From: Candidatus Latescibacterota bacterium | Lineage (GTDB): Bacteria; Latescibacterota; UBA2968; GCA-2709665 | Reading direction: 5' to 3' | Length of the DNA stretch: 64,000 bases | Assembly (NCBI GenBank): GCA_963662665.2 | Contig: CAXXJS010000010.1 | Span: 160,001-224,000 of the forward strand | In this document: positions 53,938 to 64,000 of the stretch, in pieces | Layout: each line of letters starts with the position of its first letter | Position numbering within the stretch: the first letter of the stretch is position 1 | The notes under the pieces: generated by a model | What the model was told of the DNA's origin: nothing | Database searches by the model: none | The model's input: the letters and a program-made list of their open reading frames with translations, nothing else | Program-made: the position numbers and the translations under genes

Positions 53938-55242
53938 ATGTCGATACTTACGTGTCTGTTATTCTTGGTTATGTTCCTTTACTTCGCCAGAACCCGTGCG
54001 GCCGCCGCCGAGGTTACGCTTGCGGCCGGCACGGCCAGGGCCGACATCACACCCGATCCCGCGATGGTGAACTGGGTGGATGGCAGACCCTATGACGGCG
54101 TTCTGGATCGCCTCACCCTGCGCGGACTCGTTCTTTCGGACGGATCCACAGAATTCGCTTTGATTTGCTGGGATCTCATCGACGCGACGGAGGAATGCGT
54201 CGTCGACGTACGGCGGGCGGTTCGCGGCGCAACGGGCATCCCGGAAACGCACATCCTCGTGGCCGCCTCGCACACCCACTCGTCGCCCCGTTCCCCATAT
54301 GCCGCAACCACGTTTCCCGGACGCAGGAGCGAACGGCTGAGAGCCATACTGGACGATCCCGTCTTCCAGGCCTGGAGCCGGCGCCTCCCCGAACAATGCA
54401 CGGATGTCCTGAAACGTGCGCAGGAACGCCGGCAGACCGTCACATTGAACATCGGCCGTGCGAATGTCTCAGAATGGCTATTCAACCGGCGGCCACTCGA
54501 TCCGAACGGCAACGCGGTTACGATGTTTAAACCGGAAGATCCGCGTACGTTGCCGGGCGGCCTGCGTTTCGGTTCGCTGGATCCGACCCTTACGGTCCTG
54601 ACCCTCACAGGCGCGGACAACACGAATGTTGCGACTGTTTACAGCGCGCCCTGCCACCCCGTCTCCATCTATCCCTATCACCGCGGGGTTTCGGCAGATT
54701 GGCCGGGACCGGCCAGTGAACGGATTTCGGAAGTCCTGGGCGGCGAAACCTTCTTTCTGCAGGGCTGCTCGGGAGACATCGTCCCCGCCAGCCGAGGTGA
54801 AGGAGCGCGCAAGGAAATGGCCCGTTTCTTCGCGGAACGGGCCATTGCGGCGGCACGGCGGTCCCACCGCCTGCCCTCGTCGCCTCTGACGGTAGCAACA
54901 GGGATTGTCGGCCTGCCGCTCGTACCCGAAGCGCGAAGGGTGGCCGGCGCCGACGTCCGACCGGTCGAAATCCAGGCGGCTGTTTGCGGGCCGTTCGGCC
55001 TCGCCGTACTGCCCGGCGAACCCCTCAACGGGCTCGCGCGGGAGATTCAGGCGCGCTCACCCCTCCCGCACACGCTTGTTATCGGCTACGCCAATGGCCG
55101 CGGGGTGAGTTACGTTGGTCTTCCCGGAGAAAAAGCCAGAGGCGGATACGAAGCAGGCGCGGGCCAGGGTACCGAAGAAGCCGGCGACTTTATGATTCAG
55201 ACCGCCCTTCGGCTTCTGGGGGAACAGGTCGAAGACATCTAA
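53938..55242 (+). CDS. neutral/alkaline ceramidase-like hydrolase (second paralog)
   Basis: AGTARADITP, ASHTHSSP, FNRR, CHP, SADWPG, LPGEP, GGYE. Confidence 0.85.
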   Translation: MSILTCLLFLVMFLYFARTRAAAAEVTLAAGTARADITPDPAMVNWVDGRPYDGVLDRLTLRGLVLSDGSTEFALICWDLIDATEECVVDVRRAVRGATGIPETHILVAASHTHSSPRSPYAATTFPGRRSERLRAILDDPVFQAWSRRLPEQCTDVLKRAQERRQTVTLNIGRANVSEWLFNRRPLDPNGNAVTMFKPEDPRTLPGGLRFGSLDPTLTVLTLTGADNTNVATVYSAPCHPVSIYPYHRGVSADWPGPASERISEVLGGETFFLQGCSGDIVPASRGEGARKEMARFFAERAIAAARRSHRLPSSPLTVATGIVGLPLVPEARRVAGADVRPVEIQAAVCGPFGLAVLPGEPLNGLAREIQARSPLPHTLVIGYANGRGVSYVGLPGEKARGGYEAGAGQGTEEAGDFMIQTALRLLGEQVEDI

Positions 55243-55736: not shown

Positions 55737-57284
55737 TCACTCCTCCTTTTCACGCCGAGACCGATCGGGAAACAGAAGAGAACCGAGAACCATAAGGCCC
55801 ATCGCCAGAACGGTTGCGCCGAGACCGATATGTGCGCCGGTGAAGGCGCCCAGACCCAGGGCCCTTTTCACGGGCGTCAGGCCGGTAACGGCAGCGGCTC
55901 CGGCAACAAGGGCGAGGTACGCACCGGCGGTGCTGGCGCGCTTCCAGTAGAGCCCGGTGAGGAGTAAGGCGAATGCGCCGGTGAAATAGATGGCGCCGCT
56001 GACCAGCATATAATCCCACAGGTCCTGGCCAAGCTCGTACCACAGTCCCCAGACGAGCAGAAAGGCGCCGATGAGAAATATGAAGATCCGGGACAGGGTC
56101 AGGCGTGCACGGGTGGAGAGGGTGTCGCCGGTGGCGGGTGCGACTACGTCGTGGGTGAGTACCGAGGACCAGCACAGCAGATAGCTGTCGTGCGTGGACA
56201 TGAACGCGGCAAGCAGTCCCGCGCCGATAAGGCCGATGAGACCGGCAGGAAGAATCTGGCTGAGGAAAACGGGCATGGCCAGAAGGGTGAGATCCGCATT
56301 CCCCGTGGGTACGCCTGCGGCTGAAAAAAAGACCGCACGGGTCACCTCGTTCTGGTAGAGGTAGACAAAGGCGCAGATGCCCAGAAACTGCGGCACCATG
56401 AATCGAACGAGGAAGCCGATGGCAGACCAGGCGTAGAGTTTTTTCACCACGGCCGGGCTTTCGGCGGCGCAAGCCCTCATAACAGCGGTCTGCCAGACCG
56501 CGCATGATACAATCCCGGCGGTAAAGATCATCCAGACGACGTACGAGGGTCCGAACCCGCCGCCTTCATGCAGCGGATTGAAGCCGGCCTCCCCGTGAAG
56601 GGTCGCTACCGTGTCGACGATTACCGACCATCCGAGCCTGTCTACGGCGATACCGCAGGTGAGAATGACACCCACAGACAACACGATAAACTGGATATAA
56701 TCGGTGATGACAACCGAAACCATGCCCCCGAGAATGGTATAACTCAGAACAAGCAGGAGCATTACGGTCATAATAATGGCAACGGACGTGGGATTCGTGA
56801 TACCGGTGAGACCGGCGACAAAGATCGCGCCCGCTTTCAGGAACAGACCCATATTGAGGATGCCCGAAAGGGCGAGCAGAAGGCCGCCGAAGATGCGGAC
56901 GCCCCGGCTGAACCGCTTTTCGTAGAATTCCGGAATCGTCATCACGCCCAGTTCGCGCAGCGGAACCACGATAAATCCGGTGAGGCCGATGATCAGGGTG
57001 ACAATGCCTGCGATAAGGCCGATGTGAAAGGCGGCGAATCCACCCGTGAAGCCCTTCTGGGCGGAATACATGACGGTCACGAGCCCGAGTTCGCTGCCGA
57101 TCATGGTTGCAACGGCGAGGTAGGGCTTGAGCGAACGGCCGGCGACAATATAGTCGCTCATGTTGCGGATGTACCTGTTGGCATAGAGGCCGATCGCGAC
57201 GGTGCCGAGCATGTACAGACCAACAATTGCCCAATCAACGGCGCCGAAGTTCGAACTGATCCGCGAAACGAGATCGGACGTCAT
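55737..57284 (-). CDS. sodium:solute symporter (SSS)
   Basis: DYIVAGR, TIPEFYEKRF, YTILGGMVSVVITDYIQ, LAAFMSTHDS. Confidence 0.93.
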   Translation of the reverse strand: MTSDLVSRISSNFGAVDWAIVGLYMLGTVAIGLYANRYIRNMSDYIVAGRSLKPYLAVATMIGSELGLVTVMYSAQKGFTGGFAAFHIGLIAGIVTLIIGLTGFIVVPLRELGVMTIPEFYEKRFSRGVRIFGGLLLALSGILNMGLFLKAGAIFVAGLTGITNPTSVAIIMTVMLLLVLSYTILGGMVSVVITDYIQFIVLSVGVILTCGIAVDRLGWSVIVDTVATLHGEAGFNPLHEGGGFGPSYVVWMIFTAGIVSCAVWQTAVMRACAAESPAVVKKLYAWSAIGFLVRFMVPQFLGICAFVYLYQNEVTRAVFFSAAGVPTGNADLTLLAMPVFLSQILPAGLIGLIGAGLLAAFMSTHDSYLLCWSSVLTHDVVAPATGDTLSTRARLTLSRIFIFLIGAFLLVWGLWYELGQDLWDYMLVSGAIYFTGAFALLLTGLYWKRASTAGAYLALVAGAAAVTGLTPVKRALGLGAFTGAHIGLGATVLAMGLMVLGSLLFPDRSRREKEE

Positions 57285-57305
57285 AGGCGATACCGGGAGT
57301 TAAAC

Positions 57306-57338
57306 AGAAAAGCACCCAGCCATGCCGGGTGCTTTTCT
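57306..57338. terminator. bidirectional intrinsic terminator-like hairpin
   Basis: AGAAAAGCACCC-9 nt-GGGTGCTTTTCT. Confidence 0.7.
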
Positions 57339-57340
57339 TG

Positions 57341-57958
57341 TTAGGGCCAGGTGGGGCGTTCCATCGAAAAGGATTCGGTGACGCATGCGTAGTCCAGGTA
57401 CCCGAGTCGCCCGACCGGTCTCAAAGCTACCGTGTCGACGTGGCCATCCTTAATAGCCCGGTCGGCAATGTGGATGCCGACAACCTGACCGAAGACAACC
57501 GTGTTCGGATCGTCCGGATTGTCCGTTGGCAGGTCCACGGTGCGGGTATGGATACATTCCAGATGCACCGGGCTTTCCGCCACACGCGGGGGCTTCACAA
57601 GCAATGAAGGCGCCTGGGTGACGCCCGCGTATTCGAATTCGTTGACGTTCGCTGGTGCGGGCACGGCGGTCGCGTTCATCTGTGTTCGAAGTTCCCACGT
57701 GGCAAGGTTTACCACGAATTCGCCGGTTTCCTGCGCGTTCTTTATGGAATCCTTTAATCCGCCGTGGGTGTGTGTGGTTGTGGCGGCAAACATGACCTGC
57801 GGCGGGGTATAGGCCACGGCGTTGAAAAACGAGTATGGGGCCAGGTTGATCGTTCCCTGCGCGTCTATCGACGAAATCCATCCTATCGGTCTTGGTACAA
57901 CGATGGCGTTGAAGGGATCGCGGCGCAGCCCGTGGCCTTCCGACGTCCTGTAGAACAT
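57341..57958 (-). CDS. flavin reductase family (DIM6/NTAB)
   Basis: VPRPIGWISS, NLAPYSFFN, KDS..N..ETGEFVVN, GRLGY. Confidence 0.92.
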   Translation of the reverse strand: MFYRTSEGHGLRRDPFNAIVVPRPIGWISSIDAQGTINLAPYSFFNAVAYTPPQVMFAATTTHTHGGLKDSIKNAQETGEFVVNLATWELRTQMNATAVPAPANVNEFEYAGVTQAPSLLVKPPRVAESPVHLECIHTRTVDLPTDNPDDPNTVVFGQVVGIHIADRAIKDGHVDTVALRPVGRLGYLDYACVTESFSMERPTWP

Positions 57959-58008
57959 GCTTGTGGTCTCTCATTCCGGAGGTTAACCCACTTTCCTTCC
58001 AGCAGGGC

Positions 58009-59010
58009 CTATTTCCACTTGAAAACAACACCCAGCGCGGCGCTCGGATCGTCGGCGAGCATCGTGTAGATTTCCTGGCACTGTTCCGGATCCGCGACGT
58101 GGGTGATGAGGTCTTCGACCGGCAATCTGCCCTCTCCCATCAGGCGCATCACCAGCCTGCGGTCCCGTTCTTTCGCCCACCGGTAGTAAATGTGGTCGGC
58201 CTCCGGCGTCTTGGGCTGGTGGGCGCCCAGGATGCTGACTTCCCTCAGGTGTACGTCGGCCAGGAAATCCATGTCGACGGTGCCGCGCGGCGAACCCAGC
58301 GCGACCACACGGCCTGCCGTGCATGCGATTCGGACGGCGGTGGGATATACCGCGGGTTTTCCGGTCGCTTCTATAACGACGTTGGCGCCGTCTTCCACGC
58401 AGTGTCGCCCGACGGCGTCCCGGACGTCGTCCACGGCGCCGGGGTTAATGCAGACGTCAATTCCGCGGCTTTGCGCCTTGCCCAGACGAAAGTCGTCCAG
58501 GTCCACCGCGATTACCGGCACGGCGCCGGAGAGTCCCGCGAGCGTCGACGCGAGTTGGCCGACAATCCCAAGGCCGATGACGACGACAACCTCGCCCAAT
58601 TCGATGCGCGCCACACGGATCCCGTGGATGGCGATAGCGCCCATGACCATGAAGGCGGCGGCTTCGGACGACACGGAATCAGGGACTATCTGGTGGAAGG
58701 ACCTGGGGCCGGAGAGAACGCAGTGGCTGGCGTGGTTTCCCTGCCCCGCGACACGGTCTCCCGGCCGAATGCCCTCAACGTCCTTGCCGACTTCCAGCAC
58801 GGTGCCGACGTTGCAATAGCCGGTGGGGCGGGGAAACCGTACCGGGTTTCCGGGTTCGCCGCCTCGGGTCCACCCGTGGATCTCGGTACCCACGCTGACT
58901 GCTGTGTACTCGTTTTCGAGAAGGATACCGTCATCCGGTACCGGACCCGTTTCGAACGACGCGACTTCCATCCGGCGAATATCCGGAACGAGGAGACGTC
59001 TGGCTTTCAT
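58009..59010 (-). CDS. MDR-family dehydrogenase (SxGTE type, zinc-ligand poor)
   Basis: VSVGTE, TGYCNVG, GLGIVG, VIEATG. Confidence 0.88.
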   Translation of the reverse strand: MKARRLLVPDIRRMEVASFETGPVPDDGILLENEYTAVSVGTEIHGWTRGGEPGNPVRFPRPTGYCNVGTVLEVGKDVEGIRPGDRVAGQGNHASHCVLSGPRSFHQIVPDSVSSEAAAFMVMGAIAIHGIRVARIELGEVVVVIGLGIVGQLASTLAGLSGAVPVIAVDLDDFRLGKAQSRGIDVCINPGAVDDVRDAVGRHCVEDGANVVIEATGKPAVYPTAVRIACTAGRVVALGSPRGTVDMDFLADVHLREVSILGAHQPKTPEADHIYYRWAKERDRRLVMRLMGEGRLPVEDLITHVADPEQCQEIYTMLADDPSAALGVVFKWK

Positions 59011-59099
59011 TTTCAAGTCCTTTCGAGTCGGTCGAAGGGGGCACAGGGAGCGGTTCGTTGAGATGGTCGCGGAATCCCTCGGGAAGTCCGGGATGGCCG

Positions 59100-60137
59100 C
59101 TACGCCTGCCGACAGTCCAGGGTGTCCCGGAAAAGTCGAAGGAAGTTGCCTCCCCACACCTTTCGGATTTCGTTTTCCGTGAGGCCGCGAGAAAGCATGG
59201 CACGGGTGAGGCGCACAAGCCTTGAGACGTCTCCGAAAACCGGTGTAACCGAACCCATGCCGTCGTAGTCGGAGCCGACGCCAACGTGGTCGATGCCGAC
59301 CAGGTCCGCCACGTGACAGATATGGTCGACCATTCGGTCCGCGGAAGAATTTTCAGGATCGATAAAGCCAGGGAGAAAGGCAATGCCCATCACCCCGCCG
59401 GCGGCGGCCAGCGCCCTGAGCTGATCGTCGGTCAGGCAGCGCCAGTGGTTGCATTCGGAGAAAACCGCGGTGTGGGTCATTGTCACCGGGAGTGAAGACT
59501 GTTCCAGCACCTGGTAGAAGGCTTTGTCGTTAATGTGAGCCAGGTCCGTGATGACGCCCAACCGGTTGCTTTCCTGGAGAACAGCTTTGCCGAAGTCCGT
59601 CAGCCCGCCGGCATTCCTGCGTTCACGTTCACGGTCGCCAGACGTGCATGGGCCGAATGGACTCCTGCTGCCCTGAAGGTAGGCCGGGTCGTCGCCGCCT
59701 TCGCCGTGGGTGATCCCGATGCAGCGCACACCCAGACGGTAGTAGAGGCCCAATACATCCATCTCGCCTTCCAGCCAACGCCCGGCGCCTTCTATTGTAA
59801 GCAGGATGCCGATCTTGCCGGCTTCTCTCGCCCGTTCAACGTCCCGTGACGAGAACACCAGCATCAGGTCCGCGGGATACCGCTCCACCGAGGCCAGGGT
59901 CTGCTCGAGGGTAACGCGGACGTTTGCCGTGGGGCCGTTGCCGACCACGAAGAAGCCGGCGTCGAACCCGCCTTCCTTCATCCGGGGAATGTCCATGTGA
60001 TACGCGAGGTCCCGTTTCTTCAGGTCCATCGGGCGATCCCCCCGGTGGACGTGCTCTACGGGCGTGTCGTTGTGGCCGTCGACGATAAGGCAGCGATCGT
60101 GGACCGCCTGCGCTTCTTCAAGAGTGATATCCGGCAT
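59100..60137 (-). CDS. membrane dipeptidase (peptidase M19)
   Basis: VDGHND, TIEG, GLTDFG, DLAH, HVGVGSDYDG, GGNFLR. Confidence 0.92.
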   Translation of the reverse strand: MPDITLEEAQAVHDRCLIVDGHNDTPVEHVHRGDRPMDLKKRDLAYHMDIPRMKEGGFDAGFFVVGNGPTANVRVTLEQTLASVERYPADLMLVFSSRDVERAREAGKIGILLTIEGAGRWLEGEMDVLGLYYRLGVRCIGITHGEGGDDPAYLQGSRSPFGPCTSGDRERERRNAGGLTDFGKAVLQESNRLGVITDLAHINDKAFYQVLEQSSLPVTMTHTAVFSECNHWRCLTDDQLRALAAAGGVMGIAFLPGFIDPENSSADRMVDHICHVADLVGIDHVGVGSDYDGMGSVTPVFGDVSRLVRLTRAMLSRGLTENEIRKVWGGNFLRLFRDTLDCRQA

Positions 60138-60203
60138 GTGAATTGTCCTCTGATGGGGGCGACAGTGCGCCCTTGTGGGTCGGAATGACGCTCTGAGTGT
60201 TGT

Positions 60204-61526
60204 CTAAGGTGGATCGACGGGTACTTTCTGGTTCTTGCGGACCAGCGGATCGTATGTAAATCCGTCAGACCGTTTCTCGAACTCCGCACGGGCCTTTTTC
60301 AGGTTCTCCGGGCCCCGGCAGAGGTCAACCGCGCTCCCCGCGAAGACCTTGGCGGTCTGCTGGATCGCGCGCTCGGCGAAAGGAAGGGCGGCCTGCGCGG
60401 CCATGTCCCGATGATGGCCGGGCGTTCCCTTTGCATAACAGACCATCTGAAAGCGTCCCAGAGGGGCCAGCCAGGAAACGTTGTCCTCGTCCGTCGATCC
60501 CCGGCCCTGCGAGCCGCTGCCCTTCGCGATCTTTGTATTGAACCCCTTTTTATAGCCGAGTGATTCAGCGTGCTTCCGGTCGGCTTCCGTGGGTTCGGGC
60601 GGTCCGAAGCGTTTCAGGTTCTTTCGGACAATCTCGCACATCGCCTTGTTGGGCAGACGCGGGTACACGGCGGTGATGCGCGACCACTTCATCTTCGTGT
60701 CCGTGGCCCTGGCGGCGCCCCGGGCGCAGGCGGTGAGTCGTTCACGCACTTCGTCGACCTGCTTCCGGTCCTTTCCCCGCACGAAGTACCAGATTTTGGC
60801 ATAGGCCGGCACCACGTTGGGGGCGTCGCCTCCGTTGCGAATGACGGAATGGATCCTGACGTTTTCGGGGACATGCTCCCGAAGATAGTTGGCTGCAATA
60901 TCCGTAAGCATCACCCCGTCCAGGGCGCTACGGCCCCGGTGAGCCGACGCGCCGTGGGCGGTGCGGCCGAAGAATTCGTAAACGACGGAGTCCAGCGACG
61001 ATCCGCCGAAATTGTTGACGCCCGAAGAATTTCCCGGATGCCAGGCGAGGCAGGCGTCCAGGTCCCGAAAAGCGCCGTCGCGGGCCATATACACTTTGCC
61101 CGCCAGCGTTTCCTCCGCCGGACAGCCGTAGTAGACGATTTTTCCCGATGTTCCGGTTGACTCGAGAATTTTCGCAGCGGCGACCGCACCCACGGCCGGG
61201 GCAACGCCCAGCAGGTTGTGGCCTCAGCCGTGACCCCATTGGCCTTCTTCGGGACCGCAGTTGGGCAGCGCGTCGTATTCCCCCAACATCCCCACCGCCG
61301 GATCCCCGACGCCCCGGGTTGCGCGAAATGCCGTTGGGATTTTCTTGAACGGAAATTCGACGTCGAAGTCCCTCGAGGCCAGGTAGTCCGCGATGGCCTT
61401 AGAGGACCTGACTTCACGGAAGGGCCGTTCCGCAAAGGCATGTACCTGCGTGGAAAGGTCCCTGGCGCGTTTCGACTCGGCAGCCACGGCGCGATTGACC
61501 AGGCTCTTTTTTTCTTTTGCGGTCAT
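60204..61526 (-). CDS. AbgB-like M20D amidohydrolase with in-frame TGA at codon 101 (candidate selenoprotein)
   Basis: EYDALP...GHG*GHNLLG...GCPAEE...WHP...GRSALD...GSTD in one frame; SECIS-like hairpin follows the TGA. Confidence 0.85.
61182..61223 (-). promoter_or_regulatory. putative bacterial SECIS element
   Basis: GGCCACAACCUGCUGGGC-GUU-GCCCCGGCCGUGGGUGCGGUC directly 3' of UGA; apical loop starts with GU at +19. Confidence 0.6.
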
Positions 61527-61554
61527 GGAACGTTCCCTTTGTGAAAAACGCCGG

Positions 61555-61584
61555 TTGACAGTTTTCGGGTCTTCCGGATAGAAT
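61555..61584 (+). promoter_or_regulatory. sigma70 promoter upstream of candidate ncRNA copy 2
   Basis: TTGACA-18 nt-TAGAAT; preceded by CCGG as in copy 1. Confidence 0.65.
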
Positions 61585-61640
61585 CGTCAGAGGTTCCGAT
61601 TCGACTTTCCCCTCGAGTCTACATACGGCGCATCTAGCCT

Positions 61641-61820
61641 TGATTCGTAATTCTTCGGGGAAGTAAAACCGAATATATGCAAGAAGATAAAGACGATTTG
61701 ACTTCGGATTACCAGGATACACCAGGTCACTGGACGTGATCTGAAAAAACGTCCTCTTTGACGACCGTTACGCCCCGTTTCAGGGGTTTTCGTCGCGTCG
61801 CCGAGTTGCTGTTTTTTTAG
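61641..61820 (+). ncRNA. candidate structured RNA (6S-like rod), copy 2
   Basis: 75% ungapped identity to 27141-27320; ends in a T7 run. Confidence 0.5.
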
Positions 61821-61828
61821 AATTGAGG

Positions 61829-62917
61829 CTAACGTCCAGCGACGGCATCAGCCACCGCATCGCCCACTTCGTACGTCCTGGCGGCGCCTCCCAGATCGAC
61901 CGGGTGGTTCTTCGGATTGTCCAGCGTTCGATCGACGGCGCGGTCAATCGTCTCGGAAGCCGCGACGGCTTCAGGATCGTTGTGACGCGCTCCCAGCCAG
62001 GACAGCATCATCCCGGCGGAAACGATCTGGGCCATGGGATTGGCGATGCCCTTCCCGGCTATGTCGGGGGCGGTACCGTGGGAAGGCTGGAAGACGCCGT
62101 AGCGGTCGCCTACGTCGGCCGAAGGCGCCATACCCATCCCGCCGATGGTTGCGGCGGCCAGGTCCGATATGATATCCCCGAACATATTTTCCGCAACGAC
62201 AACGTCGTACCAGGCCGGGTTGCGCAGCTGATACACGGTGAATGCATCCACGTAGGCATAATCCCGTTCGATTTCGGGATACGATTCGGCGATCTCGTCG
62301 TAGATCTGCCGGAAAAAAGCCATACTCTTCAGAATGTTGGCTTTGTCAACGGAGGTGACGCGGCTCCTGCCGTCTGCGGGCGCCCCCTTCCGTTGTTTCG
62401 CGATTTCAAAGGCGTACCGGACGATCCGTTCGGTACCGGCGCGGGTGATGACCATATTGTCCACTGCAAGGCTGTCGCCCAGGCGGACCCCGGCGCCGCG
62501 AGAGGCGTAGAGTCCTTCGGTATTCTCACGCAGGATGACGTAGTCGAGCGGCGGATTCCCATCGAGAAGCGGAGGCACACCGCGAAATTTCCTGATGGGT
62601 CTGATCCCGGCGTAAAGGTCGAGTTCGAAGCGCAGTGTCAGTTGCGGGGCGATTTCCGTGCCGTCGGGAAACCGGATATCGGGGTCGCCCGCGGAACCGA
62701 AGAGCACGGCGTCGGCCTGCTTGCACGCGTCGAGGGTGGGATCGGGCAGGTCATTACCGGTTTCGGCGTAACACCTTGCGCCTACCTGGTGTTCGGAAAA
62801 GGTGAACCGGAGACCGGGATGCGGCTCCTCGAGCGCCAGGAGGACTTTAAGCGCTTCCCCCACTACTTCCGGGCCGACGCCGTCTCCGGGGAGTACCGCG
62901 ATGTTATACGTTGGCAT
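61829..62917 (-). CDS. isocitrate/isopropylmalate/tartrate dehydrogenase family
   Basis: LPGDGVGPEV, RENTEGLY, DKANIL, NMFGDIISDL, HGTAPDIAGKG. Confidence 0.92.
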   Translation of the reverse strand: MPTYNIAVLPGDGVGPEVVGEALKVLLALEEPHPGLRFTFSEHQVGARCYAETGNDLPDPTLDACKQADAVLFGSAGDPDIRFPDGTEIAPQLTLRFELDLYAGIRPIRKFRGVPPLLDGNPPLDYVILRENTEGLYASRGAGVRLGDSLAVDNMVITRAGTERIVRYAFEIAKQRKGAPADGRSRVTSVDKANILKSMAFFRQIYDEIAESYPEIERDYAYVDAFTVYQLRNPAWYDVVVAENMFGDIISDLAAATIGGMGMAPSADVGDRYGVFQPSHGTAPDIAGKGIANPMAQIVSAGMMLSWLGARHNDPEAVAASETIDRAVDRTLDNPKNHPVDLGGAARTYEVGDAVADAVAGR

Positions 62918-62927
62918 GTACGTCCTT

Positions 62928-64000
62928 TCAAAAGATACGGAATCCGCCCTCGGATCTTACGCCGCGTTCCAGCATGTCCGGCTCGACGTCGAATCCCGCA
63001 CCGGGGGTATCGGGTACGATCAGCCTGCCGTTTCGCGTCTGCCATCCGTCAAGGACGATGCCCGGCATGTTTGCGGGAGCCGCCTCCAGGAGGCTGAAAT
63101 TGGGTATGGATGCGGCGAAGTGGGCGTGTGCGTAACGTTCGATAACACTCCCCCAGCAATGAGGGGCGCACTTCGCACCCCAGGGCTGGATCCGATCCGC
63201 GGTTGCTTTCCACCAGGTCAGACCCTTGAATCGGAAGTCGTGCTGAACAACGTCGATCCACCCCTTTTCGACCATATCGAAGAAGTCGGGCGGTGGCGGC
63301 CCGGATTCGCCGTCGGCCACGAGCGTATCGCACCCGCTTTGTTCGATGGCTTCCTTAAGGGCCTGGTTGAACGCCCGGTCTTCGGGAAACGGTTCTTCGA
63401 GCCAATAGATCTCCGCTCCCCCGCAGCGTTCGAGGATGCCCAGAGCGATGTTGAGCGTGGTACCGTTGTTGGCGTCAATGAGAATTTTTGCATCCGGTCC
63501 CGCTGCTTCCCGAACCGCGTGGATTACCAGAACGTCCCGGTCCGTTCCCTCCCGGACGGGCATCCAGCGCGCGCCGCGACCGATTTTTATTTTGAAATTG
63601 CGATAGCCGTGGCTGTGACCGGTCCGGACCTCTTCGTGAAAGATGCGCCGCGCCTGGTCGTCGTCGGCTCCGAGGTCGTCGATGTAGATGGAGCCGTCAT
63701 AGAGTTCCACTTCGCGGGCGCCGCGCGCGCCCAGAAGTTGATACAGAGGTGTCTCTTCACATCTGGCGGCAAGGTCCCACAGGGGCAGGTCGATGGCCGC
63801 GCCGGCCCCTCTTGAACCGCGGGGAAGCTCAAAGAAGTCCGATGGACGTTTGCCAAGCAGCGTCGCGGCACGCTCCCTGTCAAGCGATGACCAGCCGATA
63901 CCCACGGCGCCGCCGCCGGTGGAAATGCGCACAACCGGGTCGGTGACGGCACGGCCATGCGCGCCGATGCGGGCGTTACATCCGACGTTGCGCGGACGCT
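62928..64000 (-). CDS. mandelate racemase/enolase superfamily protein (5' end outside window)
   Basis: DLPLWDL, FKIKIG, IDAN, WLEEP, ADGE, APH. Confidence 0.88.
   Translation of the reverse strand, partial: RPRNVGCNARIGAHGRAVTDPVVRISTGGGAVGIGWSSLDRERAATLLGKRPSDFFELPRGSRGAGAAIDLPLWDLAARCEETPLYQLLGARGAREVELYDGSIYIDDLGADDDQARRIFHEEVRTGHSHGYRNFKIKIGRGARWMPVREGTDRDVLVIHAVREAAGPDAKILIDANNGTTLNIALGILERCGGAEIYWLEEPFPEDRAFNQALKEAIEQSGCDTLVADGESGPPPPDFFDMVEKGWIDVVQHDFRFKGLTWWKATADRIQPWGAKCAPHCWGSVIERYAHAHFAASIPNFSLLEAAPANMPGIVLDGWQTRNGRLIVPDTPGAGFDVEPDMLERGVRSEGGFRIF

Follow-up and report, generated by a model that had tools for sequence, protein, structure and literature searches.

A predicted selenoprotein gene of the M20D amidohydrolase family in Candidatus Latescibacterota, with UGA at the position of a conserved metal-site cysteine

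In this study, a 64,000-nucleotide stretch of DNA from Candidatus Latescibacterota bacterium (contig CAXXJS010000010.1, positions 160,001 to 224,000; hereafter the window) was found to carry a reverse-strand gene in which a single in-frame UGA, codon 101, stands at the column of a conserved cysteine. By homology, its product is an M20D-family amidohydrolase or dipeptidase (HmrA/PM20D2/AbgB-like). The gene is very probably an intact, previously unannotated selenoprotein gene, with the UGA predicted to be recoded as selenocysteine (Sec). Support comes from the conservation of the UGA, the alternation of Cys codons and UGA at one column, purifying selection, a constraint on the RNA that is specific to UGA-bearing genes, and the presence of Sec machinery. 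The organism is known only from metagenome-assembled genomes (MAGs). Nearly all characterised selenoproteins are oxidoreductases, and redox chemistry is the usual explanation for the cost of Sec. A hydrolase with Sec as a ligand of its catalytic dimetal site does not fit this explanation.

Gene structure and family assignment

The initial annotation of the window, made from its letters alone, had joined two open reading frames (ORFs) lying in one reverse-strand frame, 61224-61526 (100 amino acids, aa) and 60204-61193 (329 aa), across the TGA in TGG GGT CAC GGC TGA GGC CAC AAC CTG CTG GGC. Coordinates and translation agree with this (Table 1). When the TGA is read through, a 440-residue protein results, and the TGA is its sole internal stop, within W-G-H-G-U-G-H-N. 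The motifs EYDALP, PAEE, WHP and GSTD, said to survive in the two halves with no other lesion, are all found in the read-through translation.

The product matches the amidohydrolase model TIGR01891 at 189.8 bits, above the curated cut-off of 153.75, which is its best match in NCBIfam release 20. Of the two Pfam domains of the family, only the lid/dimerisation domain M20_dimer (PF07687) passes E <= 0.001 on this protein; the catalytic domain PF01546 is precomputed for many close homologues. Among known structures, Staphylococcus aureus HmrA (PDB 3RAM) matches at E = 7.4e-42, and the structures 7YH4 and 8XZC of PM20D2, an Xaa-Arg dipeptidase, match too. The metal-site motifs H-x-C-G-H, (P)AEE, H-P and the C-terminal His align to 3RAM, 8XZC/7YH4, 6SLF and 1XMB, with U replacing C.

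In profile alignments, column 101 falls on the Cys within G-H-A-C-G-H-N of HmrA and PM20D2 and within M-H-A-C-G-H-D of CsAga (6SLF), the N-acyl-glutamine aminoacylase of C. striatum, and of Arabidopsis ILL2 (1XMB). In M20D structures other than CsAga, we take the conserved Cys to be a metal ligand. [quoted passage not shown] Since this residue of Cys-type M20D enzymes ligates, and in one solved structure bridges, both catalytic metals, the selenolate of Sec101 would coordinate a Lewis-acid dimetal centre rather than take part in redox chemistry; by homology, Sec101 most likely ligates the hydrolytic dimetal centre. The earlier statement that the TGA sits on the metal-binding Cys stands for the column, which aligns with the Cys of all four enzymes, while for selenium itself metal ligation is a prediction. 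S. aureus Sapep was considered as an M20D enzyme with a Cys ligand and dropped: it is PepV-like and its cysteines are not active-site residues (PMC2937973). The available text of PMC7804941 contains nothing on Cys ligation.

Conservation of the UGA and selection on the gene

Of 41 related genomes searched in six frames, 37 had an orthologue, each match with exactly one TGA; W-G-H-G-*-G-H-N-L-L-G was read at the stop in 30 of the 30 loci fetched. The scan was widened to 168 genomes of the phylum at E <= 1e-80, with 69 matches in 68 genomes. All 55 matches of 68-100% identity had one TGA, at the same column, and these span three taxonomic families; all 14 matches of 38-67% identity were without any stop. 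Among distinct orthologous coding sequences (CDSs; 1311-1326 nt), the TGA was invariant in 38 of 38 and no second lesion was found in any. The TGA is thus not the singleton that the initial annotation had named as a possible outcome.

In a set of 80 loci from named genome records, where the column was read by motif match, 23 loci had TGA, 54 had TGC or TGT, and 3 had no motif match. The TGA loci, of 71-92% identity, belonged to MAGs of Candidatus Latescibacterota, some of which bear the label Gemmatimonadota. The Cys-codon loci, at 32-67% identity, came from Latescibacterota, Kiritimatiellae, Planctomycetota, Lentisphaerae, Armatimonadota, Aminicenantes, Clostridia and Alphaproteobacteria. A metagenome set of 80 loci gave 4 TGA loci, 73 Cys-codon motif matches and 5 loci without a motif match. 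One metagenome contig (L135) carries two Cys-type amidohydrolase paralogues in tandem, at positions 367 and 1723.

These counts bear on the possibility of a pseudogene, in which a nonsense mutation from TGC or TGT to TGA inactivated a Cys-type amidohydrolase. Such a change takes one substitution, and Cys forms are known at 70-77% identity. Against it stand the TGA shared by 55 of 55 orthologues across three families, the lack of a second lesion in the 38 CDSs, and the pattern of selection. In nine pairwise comparisons with the window gene, the ratio of nonsynonymous to synonymous substitution rates (dN/dS) was 0.12-0.26 for codons 1-100; for codons 102-440 it was 0.05-0.14, computable in 7 of the 9 pairs because synonymous divergence (dS) was saturated in two. 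Both halves of the gene are under purifying selection. In distant orthologue pairs synonymous differences are near saturation (pS 0.6-0.78), so the orthologue genomes are not copies of one assembly. Inactivation by a nonsense mutation is extremely improbable.

Assembled contigs of runs X1 and X3, from two studies, carry the stretch with zero differences, although either may be the window's own source. A 1292-nt contig of run X7 has 6 differences from the window, and none of the 5 listed falls at the TGA. From an RNA library (metatranscriptome run X15) comes a contig of 1386 nt that belongs to a relative with about 90% identity and covers 60315-61526, the TGA region included. This contig is a hint of expression only; it may stem from DNA carry-over and does not prove transcription.

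The RNA element downstream of the UGA

The initial annotation had also drawn a three-stem structure with an apical GUU loop in the nucleotides that follow the UGA. In the window sequence the drawn hairpin has a free energy of -16.7 kcal/mol; folding without constraint reaches -18.7 kcal/mol, the apical loop then being slightly altered. Structures were compared in an alignment (A1) of 36 distinct orthologous 72-nt segments, with an RNAalifold consensus; over these sequences, the minimum free energy (MFE) of the 42 nt after the UGA was -13.2 to -18.7 kcal/mol. The drawn structure was 93.3% paired, versus 36-56% when the 3' partners were slid by 1-3 columns. Its pair G21-C38 (alignment numbering) was broken in 28 of the 36 sequences and C12-G49 in 7. 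The drawing thus holds in that the sequence folds and four apical pairs are invariant, but its lower stems are only partly conserved.

RNAalifold keeps two hairpins, the apical GGGC-NNN-GCCC and GGCCG(U/C)-(G/A)GGU-GCGGU(C/U). In the apical stem, four G-C/C-G pairs are invariant in all 36 sequences, and two further pairs lie beyond a bulged C. The apical loop comes 18 nt after the UGA, i.e. its first base is the 19th, and reads GUU in 32 of the 36 sequences, with GUA in three others and ACA in the remaining one. In the second hairpin all six pairs are kept in 36 of 36, with changes from U-G to C-G (17) and from G-C to G-U (7), each on one side. Every variable hairpin pair shows such one-sided, wobble-compatible changes. 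The second hairpin may be an alternative or additional part of the selenocysteine insertion sequence (SECIS), or a stabilising stem.

The bacterial SECIS (bSECIS) model asks for a loop of 3-9 nt, an upper stem of 4-16 bp, a G in the first two loop positions, a spacing of 16-37 nt from the UGA and an MFE of at most -7.5 kcal/mol (PMC13188914). Here the loop has 3 nt (6 nt in an alternative register), the stem 4 invariant bp, the spacing is 18 nt, and the MFE range given above lies below the limit; the G in the loop is present in 35 of 36 sequences. The earlier proposal of a G(U)-starting loop within this distance is borne out.

The same region stands out at synonymous sites. Over the 38 CDSs, third-position entropy had a gene mean of 1.20 bits, and the gene minimum lay in codons 106-114. 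Of all six-codon windows, the one beginning at codon 106 is the lowest (0.081 bits), and those next in rank all overlap codons 105-116. The four-fold degenerate sites of Gly107, Ala109, Pro110, Ala111 and Ala114 are invariant. In a control of 26 Cys-type CDSs, the equivalent nine codons had 1.47 bits versus 1.31 gene-wide and ranked 337th of 377, counted from the lowest. Thus, the constraint on the nucleotides is peculiar to the TGA genes. Evidence for the RNA element is comparative, not thermodynamic.

Selenocysteine machinery and genetic code

The genes for Sec synthesis and insertion, which the initial annotation had proposed to look for, were all found in the organism's own genome. selA (483.5 bits), selB (371.7 bits) and the gene for tRNA-Sec (selC; anticodon tca) adjoin as one reverse-strand cluster (contig C16:126249-129542). 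selD (355.6 bits, one TGA) lies elsewhere (contig C40:300099-301019). selD, which belongs to an established selenoprotein family, is itself a selenoprotein gene here, with its TGA in C-G-U-A-A-K (locus L007, position 1528-1530). A hairpin, CAGUCC-GGUC-GGACUG, comes after its UGA, the loop lying 17 nt downstream; this element is of the same spacing class as that of the amidohydrolase gene and also has a G-rich loop start. Across the phylum, SelA (E <= 1e-60, 168 genomes) was found in 131 genomes. It was present in 54 of 55 TGA-form genomes versus 3 of 13 genomes with Cys forms only. Related genomes are not independent, so this co-occurrence is a matter of consistency and not a statistical test.

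The open frame as such could also be explained by a genome-wide reassignment of TGA from stop to sense in this lineage, and nothing beyond the open frame speaks for it. Of the 955 open frames in the genome that reach 500 codons or more, 499 end in TGA, which is the commonest terminator of these long frames; the genome has a G+C content of 58.8%; and the orthologues carry one in-frame TGA each, always at the same column. TGA is a normal stop codon in this genome (standard code), and the chance of a reassignment is next to nil.

Another possibility is programmed read-through without selenium, in which the conserved RNA element promotes near-cognate decoding (as Trp or Cys, for instance) or else serves as a regulatory attenuator. 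Sequence comparison does not distinguish the inserted residue, and the hairpin shows no compensatory covariation, both of which leave room for this explanation. But the column is that of an invariant metal-ligand Cys, where only Cys or Sec is chemically plausible, SelA co-occurs with the UGA form in the genomes, and the loop agrees in identity and spacing with the bSECIS model as well as with the genome's own selD element. Read-through without selenium is thus improbable.

Observations that weigh against a selenoprotein

Several results weigh against recoding of the UGA as Sec, or against the family assignment. The evidence for selenium in the protein is indirect. The gene product itself gives no match to PF01546 at E <= 0.001. 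One genome with the TGA form (G032; 430 contigs, 91% completeness) gave no SelA match. TGA retention in the X7 and X15 contigs cannot be read from the differences listed. For the RNA, no compensatory double changes were found over the 36 sequences, either in the 15 pairs of the drawn structure or in the 17 of the RNAalifold consensus, so the hairpin structure rests on invariance and on one-sided wobble-compatible changes; since no variation occurs on the 3' sides, a shuffle test of covariation (500 of 500 shuffles equal) was uninformative. A single-sequence fold of 66 nt, with 6 nt upstream of the UGA included, pairs the UGA and does not outperform shuffled sequences (z = -1.29), and the loop ACA, in orthologue L058, is without the canonical G. 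Full-length Cys forms exist at 70-77% identity (P0002-P0022). In an unrooted maximum-likelihood tree (LG+G4, short search) with 120 rows, 42 of them Sec and 78 Cys, the two forms are interleaved inside one clade, with at least four state changes, two of them forced by well-supported branches.

History of Sec and Cys forms and database annotation

The close Cys forms indicate that Sec is dispensable for the fold. The same SECIS sequence is common to all Sec forms; thus, one gain of Sec followed by several Sec-to-Cys reversions is the simplest history, but with an unrooted tree it is a tentative one. One metagenome orthologue, L131 (1800-1850), about 70% identical to the query Cys form, has TGC at the Sec column and still carries CTGGGCGTGGCCCCGGCC, one base off the SECIS core. 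It appears to have switched from Sec to Cys recently, keeping a fossil SECIS.

Public gene calls have missed the first part of the Sec-type proteins (Table 1). Among the 120 proteins listed, 18, with identities of 71-92%, are ORFs cut short at the N-terminus (294-336 aa); in this list, orthologues of such identity occur as truncated ORFs only, and no full-length record exceeds 77% identity. The truncated calls start inside or after the SECIS, and one cluster holds 217 member sequences. Two were named 'peptidase dimerization domain-containing protein' by NCBI. The metal-binding motif is absent from such calls; a metabolic reconstruction of Latescibacterota would miss them or count them as fragments.

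The truncated calls could be taken at face value as products of a split gene, in which termination and reinitiation yield a 100-residue N-terminal peptide and a second, downstream polypeptide that associate; the annotation of the downstream ORF by gene callers is what favours this. The segment G-H-N-L-L-G-V-A-P-A between the UGA and any start, however, is invariant or nearly so in the protein sequences and holds the metal-motif His. The internal GTG of the window gene (codon 112) is not conserved, the residue being Val in 20 and Ala in 18 of the 38 CDSs, and all Cys-type homologues are single chains. A split gene is very unlikely.

Table 1. Coordinates of the gene and its RNA features in the window, and truncated Sec-type proteins of the public collection
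Feature	Position	Strand	Details
M20D-type amidohydrolase CDS	60204..61526	-	440 codons + TAG stop; ATG 61526-61524; one in-frame TGA
In-frame UGA, codon 101, proposed Sec codon at conserved M20D Cys column	61224..61226	-	orthologue conservation, alignment
Candidate bacterial SECIS region, 42 nt after UGA	61182..61223	-	MFE and pairing over 36 orthologues
Apical hairpin C-U-G-G-G-C / G-U-U loop / G-C-C-C-(C)-G-G	61196..61211	-	loop 61205-61203; invariant pairs, low third-position entropy
Second conserved hairpin GGCCG(U/C) / (G/A)GGU loop / GCGGU(C/U)	61182..61197	-	loop 32 nt after UGA; RNAalifold
Truncated Sec-type proteins, first part			P0024, P0034, P0049, P0060-P0065, P0071, P0078
Truncated Sec-type proteins, rest			P0080, P0081, P0089, P0095, P0108, P0113, P0116, P0121

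Genomic context and possible substrate

A gene of the isocitrate/isopropylmalate dehydrogenase family lies upstream of the amidohydrolase gene. Downstream, on the same strand, follow genes for an M19 dipeptidase, a Zn-dependent dehydrogenase, a flavin reductase and a sodium:solute symporter (SSF). The whole co-directional cluster (window 55737-63932, reverse strand) comprises an enolase-superfamily gene (MR_MLE), Iso_dh, the Sec amidohydrolase, M19, the Zn-dependent dehydrogenase, the flavin reductase and SSF. The Iso_dh-family neighbour is kept in 19 of 23 Sec-type loci versus none of 57 other loci. The M19 gene is kept in 14 of the 23; among the 57 others there was one weak match of 26% identity (L090). 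No second M20 gene was found among the 9 neighbouring ORFs scanned (50.6-64 kb). The cluster may be an operon that serves the catabolism of a peptide-like or N-acyl compound, and for the enzyme a role in the breakdown of a peptide or N-acyl amino acid is plausible.

Identity with AbgB was considered and rejected: 3IO1 (aminobenzoyl-glutamate utilization protein) gave only 30.8 bits against the family profile, and no AbgA-like partner is adjacent. The name aminobenzoyl-glutamate utilization protein B carried by homologues at JGI is an automatic label. Elsewhere in the window, a forward-strand ORF of 434 aa (53938-55242) has no Pfam match at E <= 1e-5; the 414-aa ORF beside it has a match to neutral/alkaline ceramidase that is confined to the N-terminal part of this enzyme.

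Discussion

The scheme that we infer for Sec insertion, for the choice of the hairpin bound by SelB and for metal binding by Sec is as follows. As the ribosome nears the UGA, SelB-GTP with Sec-tRNA(Sec) would bind the conserved stem-loop just 3' of it, presumably the GGGC/GCCC stem with the G-U-N loop 18 nt after the UGA. SelB would then deliver Sec in competition with release factor 2, recoding codon 101, and in the folded enzyme Sec101 would replace the conserved Cys of the H-x-C-G-H motif.

Whether this is a new family was considered against recent surveys. No M20 peptidase or amidohydrolase appears in Table 1 (119 prokaryotic families/subfamilies, May 2026) or in the main text of PMC13188914. 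Amidohydrolase, M20 and Latescibacter are likewise absent from the main texts on deep-Sep and BSepDB (PMC12013277, PMC13326102), whose supplementary tables may list further families. Full-text literature searches, which did not cover supplementary tables, found no report of an M20D selenoprotein, and NCBIfam release 20 has no dedicated model for the Sec-type gene. Two co-occurrences in the literature have another meaning: for C. avium, the absence of selenoproteins and, separately, an M20 hippuricase are mentioned (PMC5658510), which is irrelevant here, and the M20 hydrolase YgeY is a neighbour of selenium-dependent molybdenum hydroxylases and not a selenoprotein (PMC2276186). The claim of a new family with Sec in a non-redox hydrolase is thus upheld as to the hydrolase, which has no entry in the 2026 list, but Sec outside redox chemistry is not wholly new as a prediction, since that list already contains predicted non-redox selenoproteins. 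Binding of atoms or chemical moieties is predicted for about 20% of the known families, with metals accounting for about 70% of these interactions, and a TonB-receptor selenoprotein is also listed (PMC13188914).

It is somewhat more probable than not that this is the first metallopeptidase/amidohydrolase-type selenoenzyme, with a selenolate in place of the thiolate that ligates or bridges the metals of a hydrolytic dinuclear centre, gained once in one Latescibacterota lineage with a single SECIS and reverted several times to Cys. If true, the known selenium-containing proteins would gain a hydrolase of unusual chemistry, whose Sec sits in a hydrolytic dimetal site. It would also provide natural Sec/Cys enzyme pairs at 70-77% identity for testing what selenium contributes to a non-redox site, including metal selectivity, ligand pKa and resistance to irreversible oxidation. 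The Cys forms make the comparison straightforward in terms of activity, metal content and preference, and oxidant sensitivity.

The window gene shares the family model, the motifs and the lid/dimerisation domain with Cys-type M20D enzymes (HmrA 3RAM, PM20D2 7YH4/8XZC, CsAga 6SLF, Arabidopsis ILL2 1XMB, and AbgB-like proteins). Unlike them, it encodes the metal-ligand Cys column by UGA, together with a SECIS-like element. As in bacterial SECIS of the Escherichia coli fdhF type, this element is a stem-loop directly 3' of the UGA, inside the CDS, with a small G-U-starting loop; it differs in the second conserved hairpin that follows, in its 3-nt loop, and in the ACA of one orthologue. Sec replaces a metal-ligand Cys in FdhA (Mo/W-Se) and in [NiFeSe] hydrogenases as well, and Cys-type homologues coexist with them (PMC13188914). 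Those are redox enzymes with redox-active metals, whereas the site of the window enzyme is hydrolytic and dinuclear and no electron transfer is expected there. The same list also has predicted non-redox or metal-binding families, for example the glutamine amidotransferase related to the CTP synthase C-terminal domain, the SO_0444 Cu/Zn efflux transporter, MbdU, and SaoB/SaoC (PMC13188914). Like the M20D gene of Latescibacterota, these show UGA/Cys pairs and a bSECIS, and in them Sec is proposed to act as a nucleophile or metal ligand outside thiol-redox chemistry.

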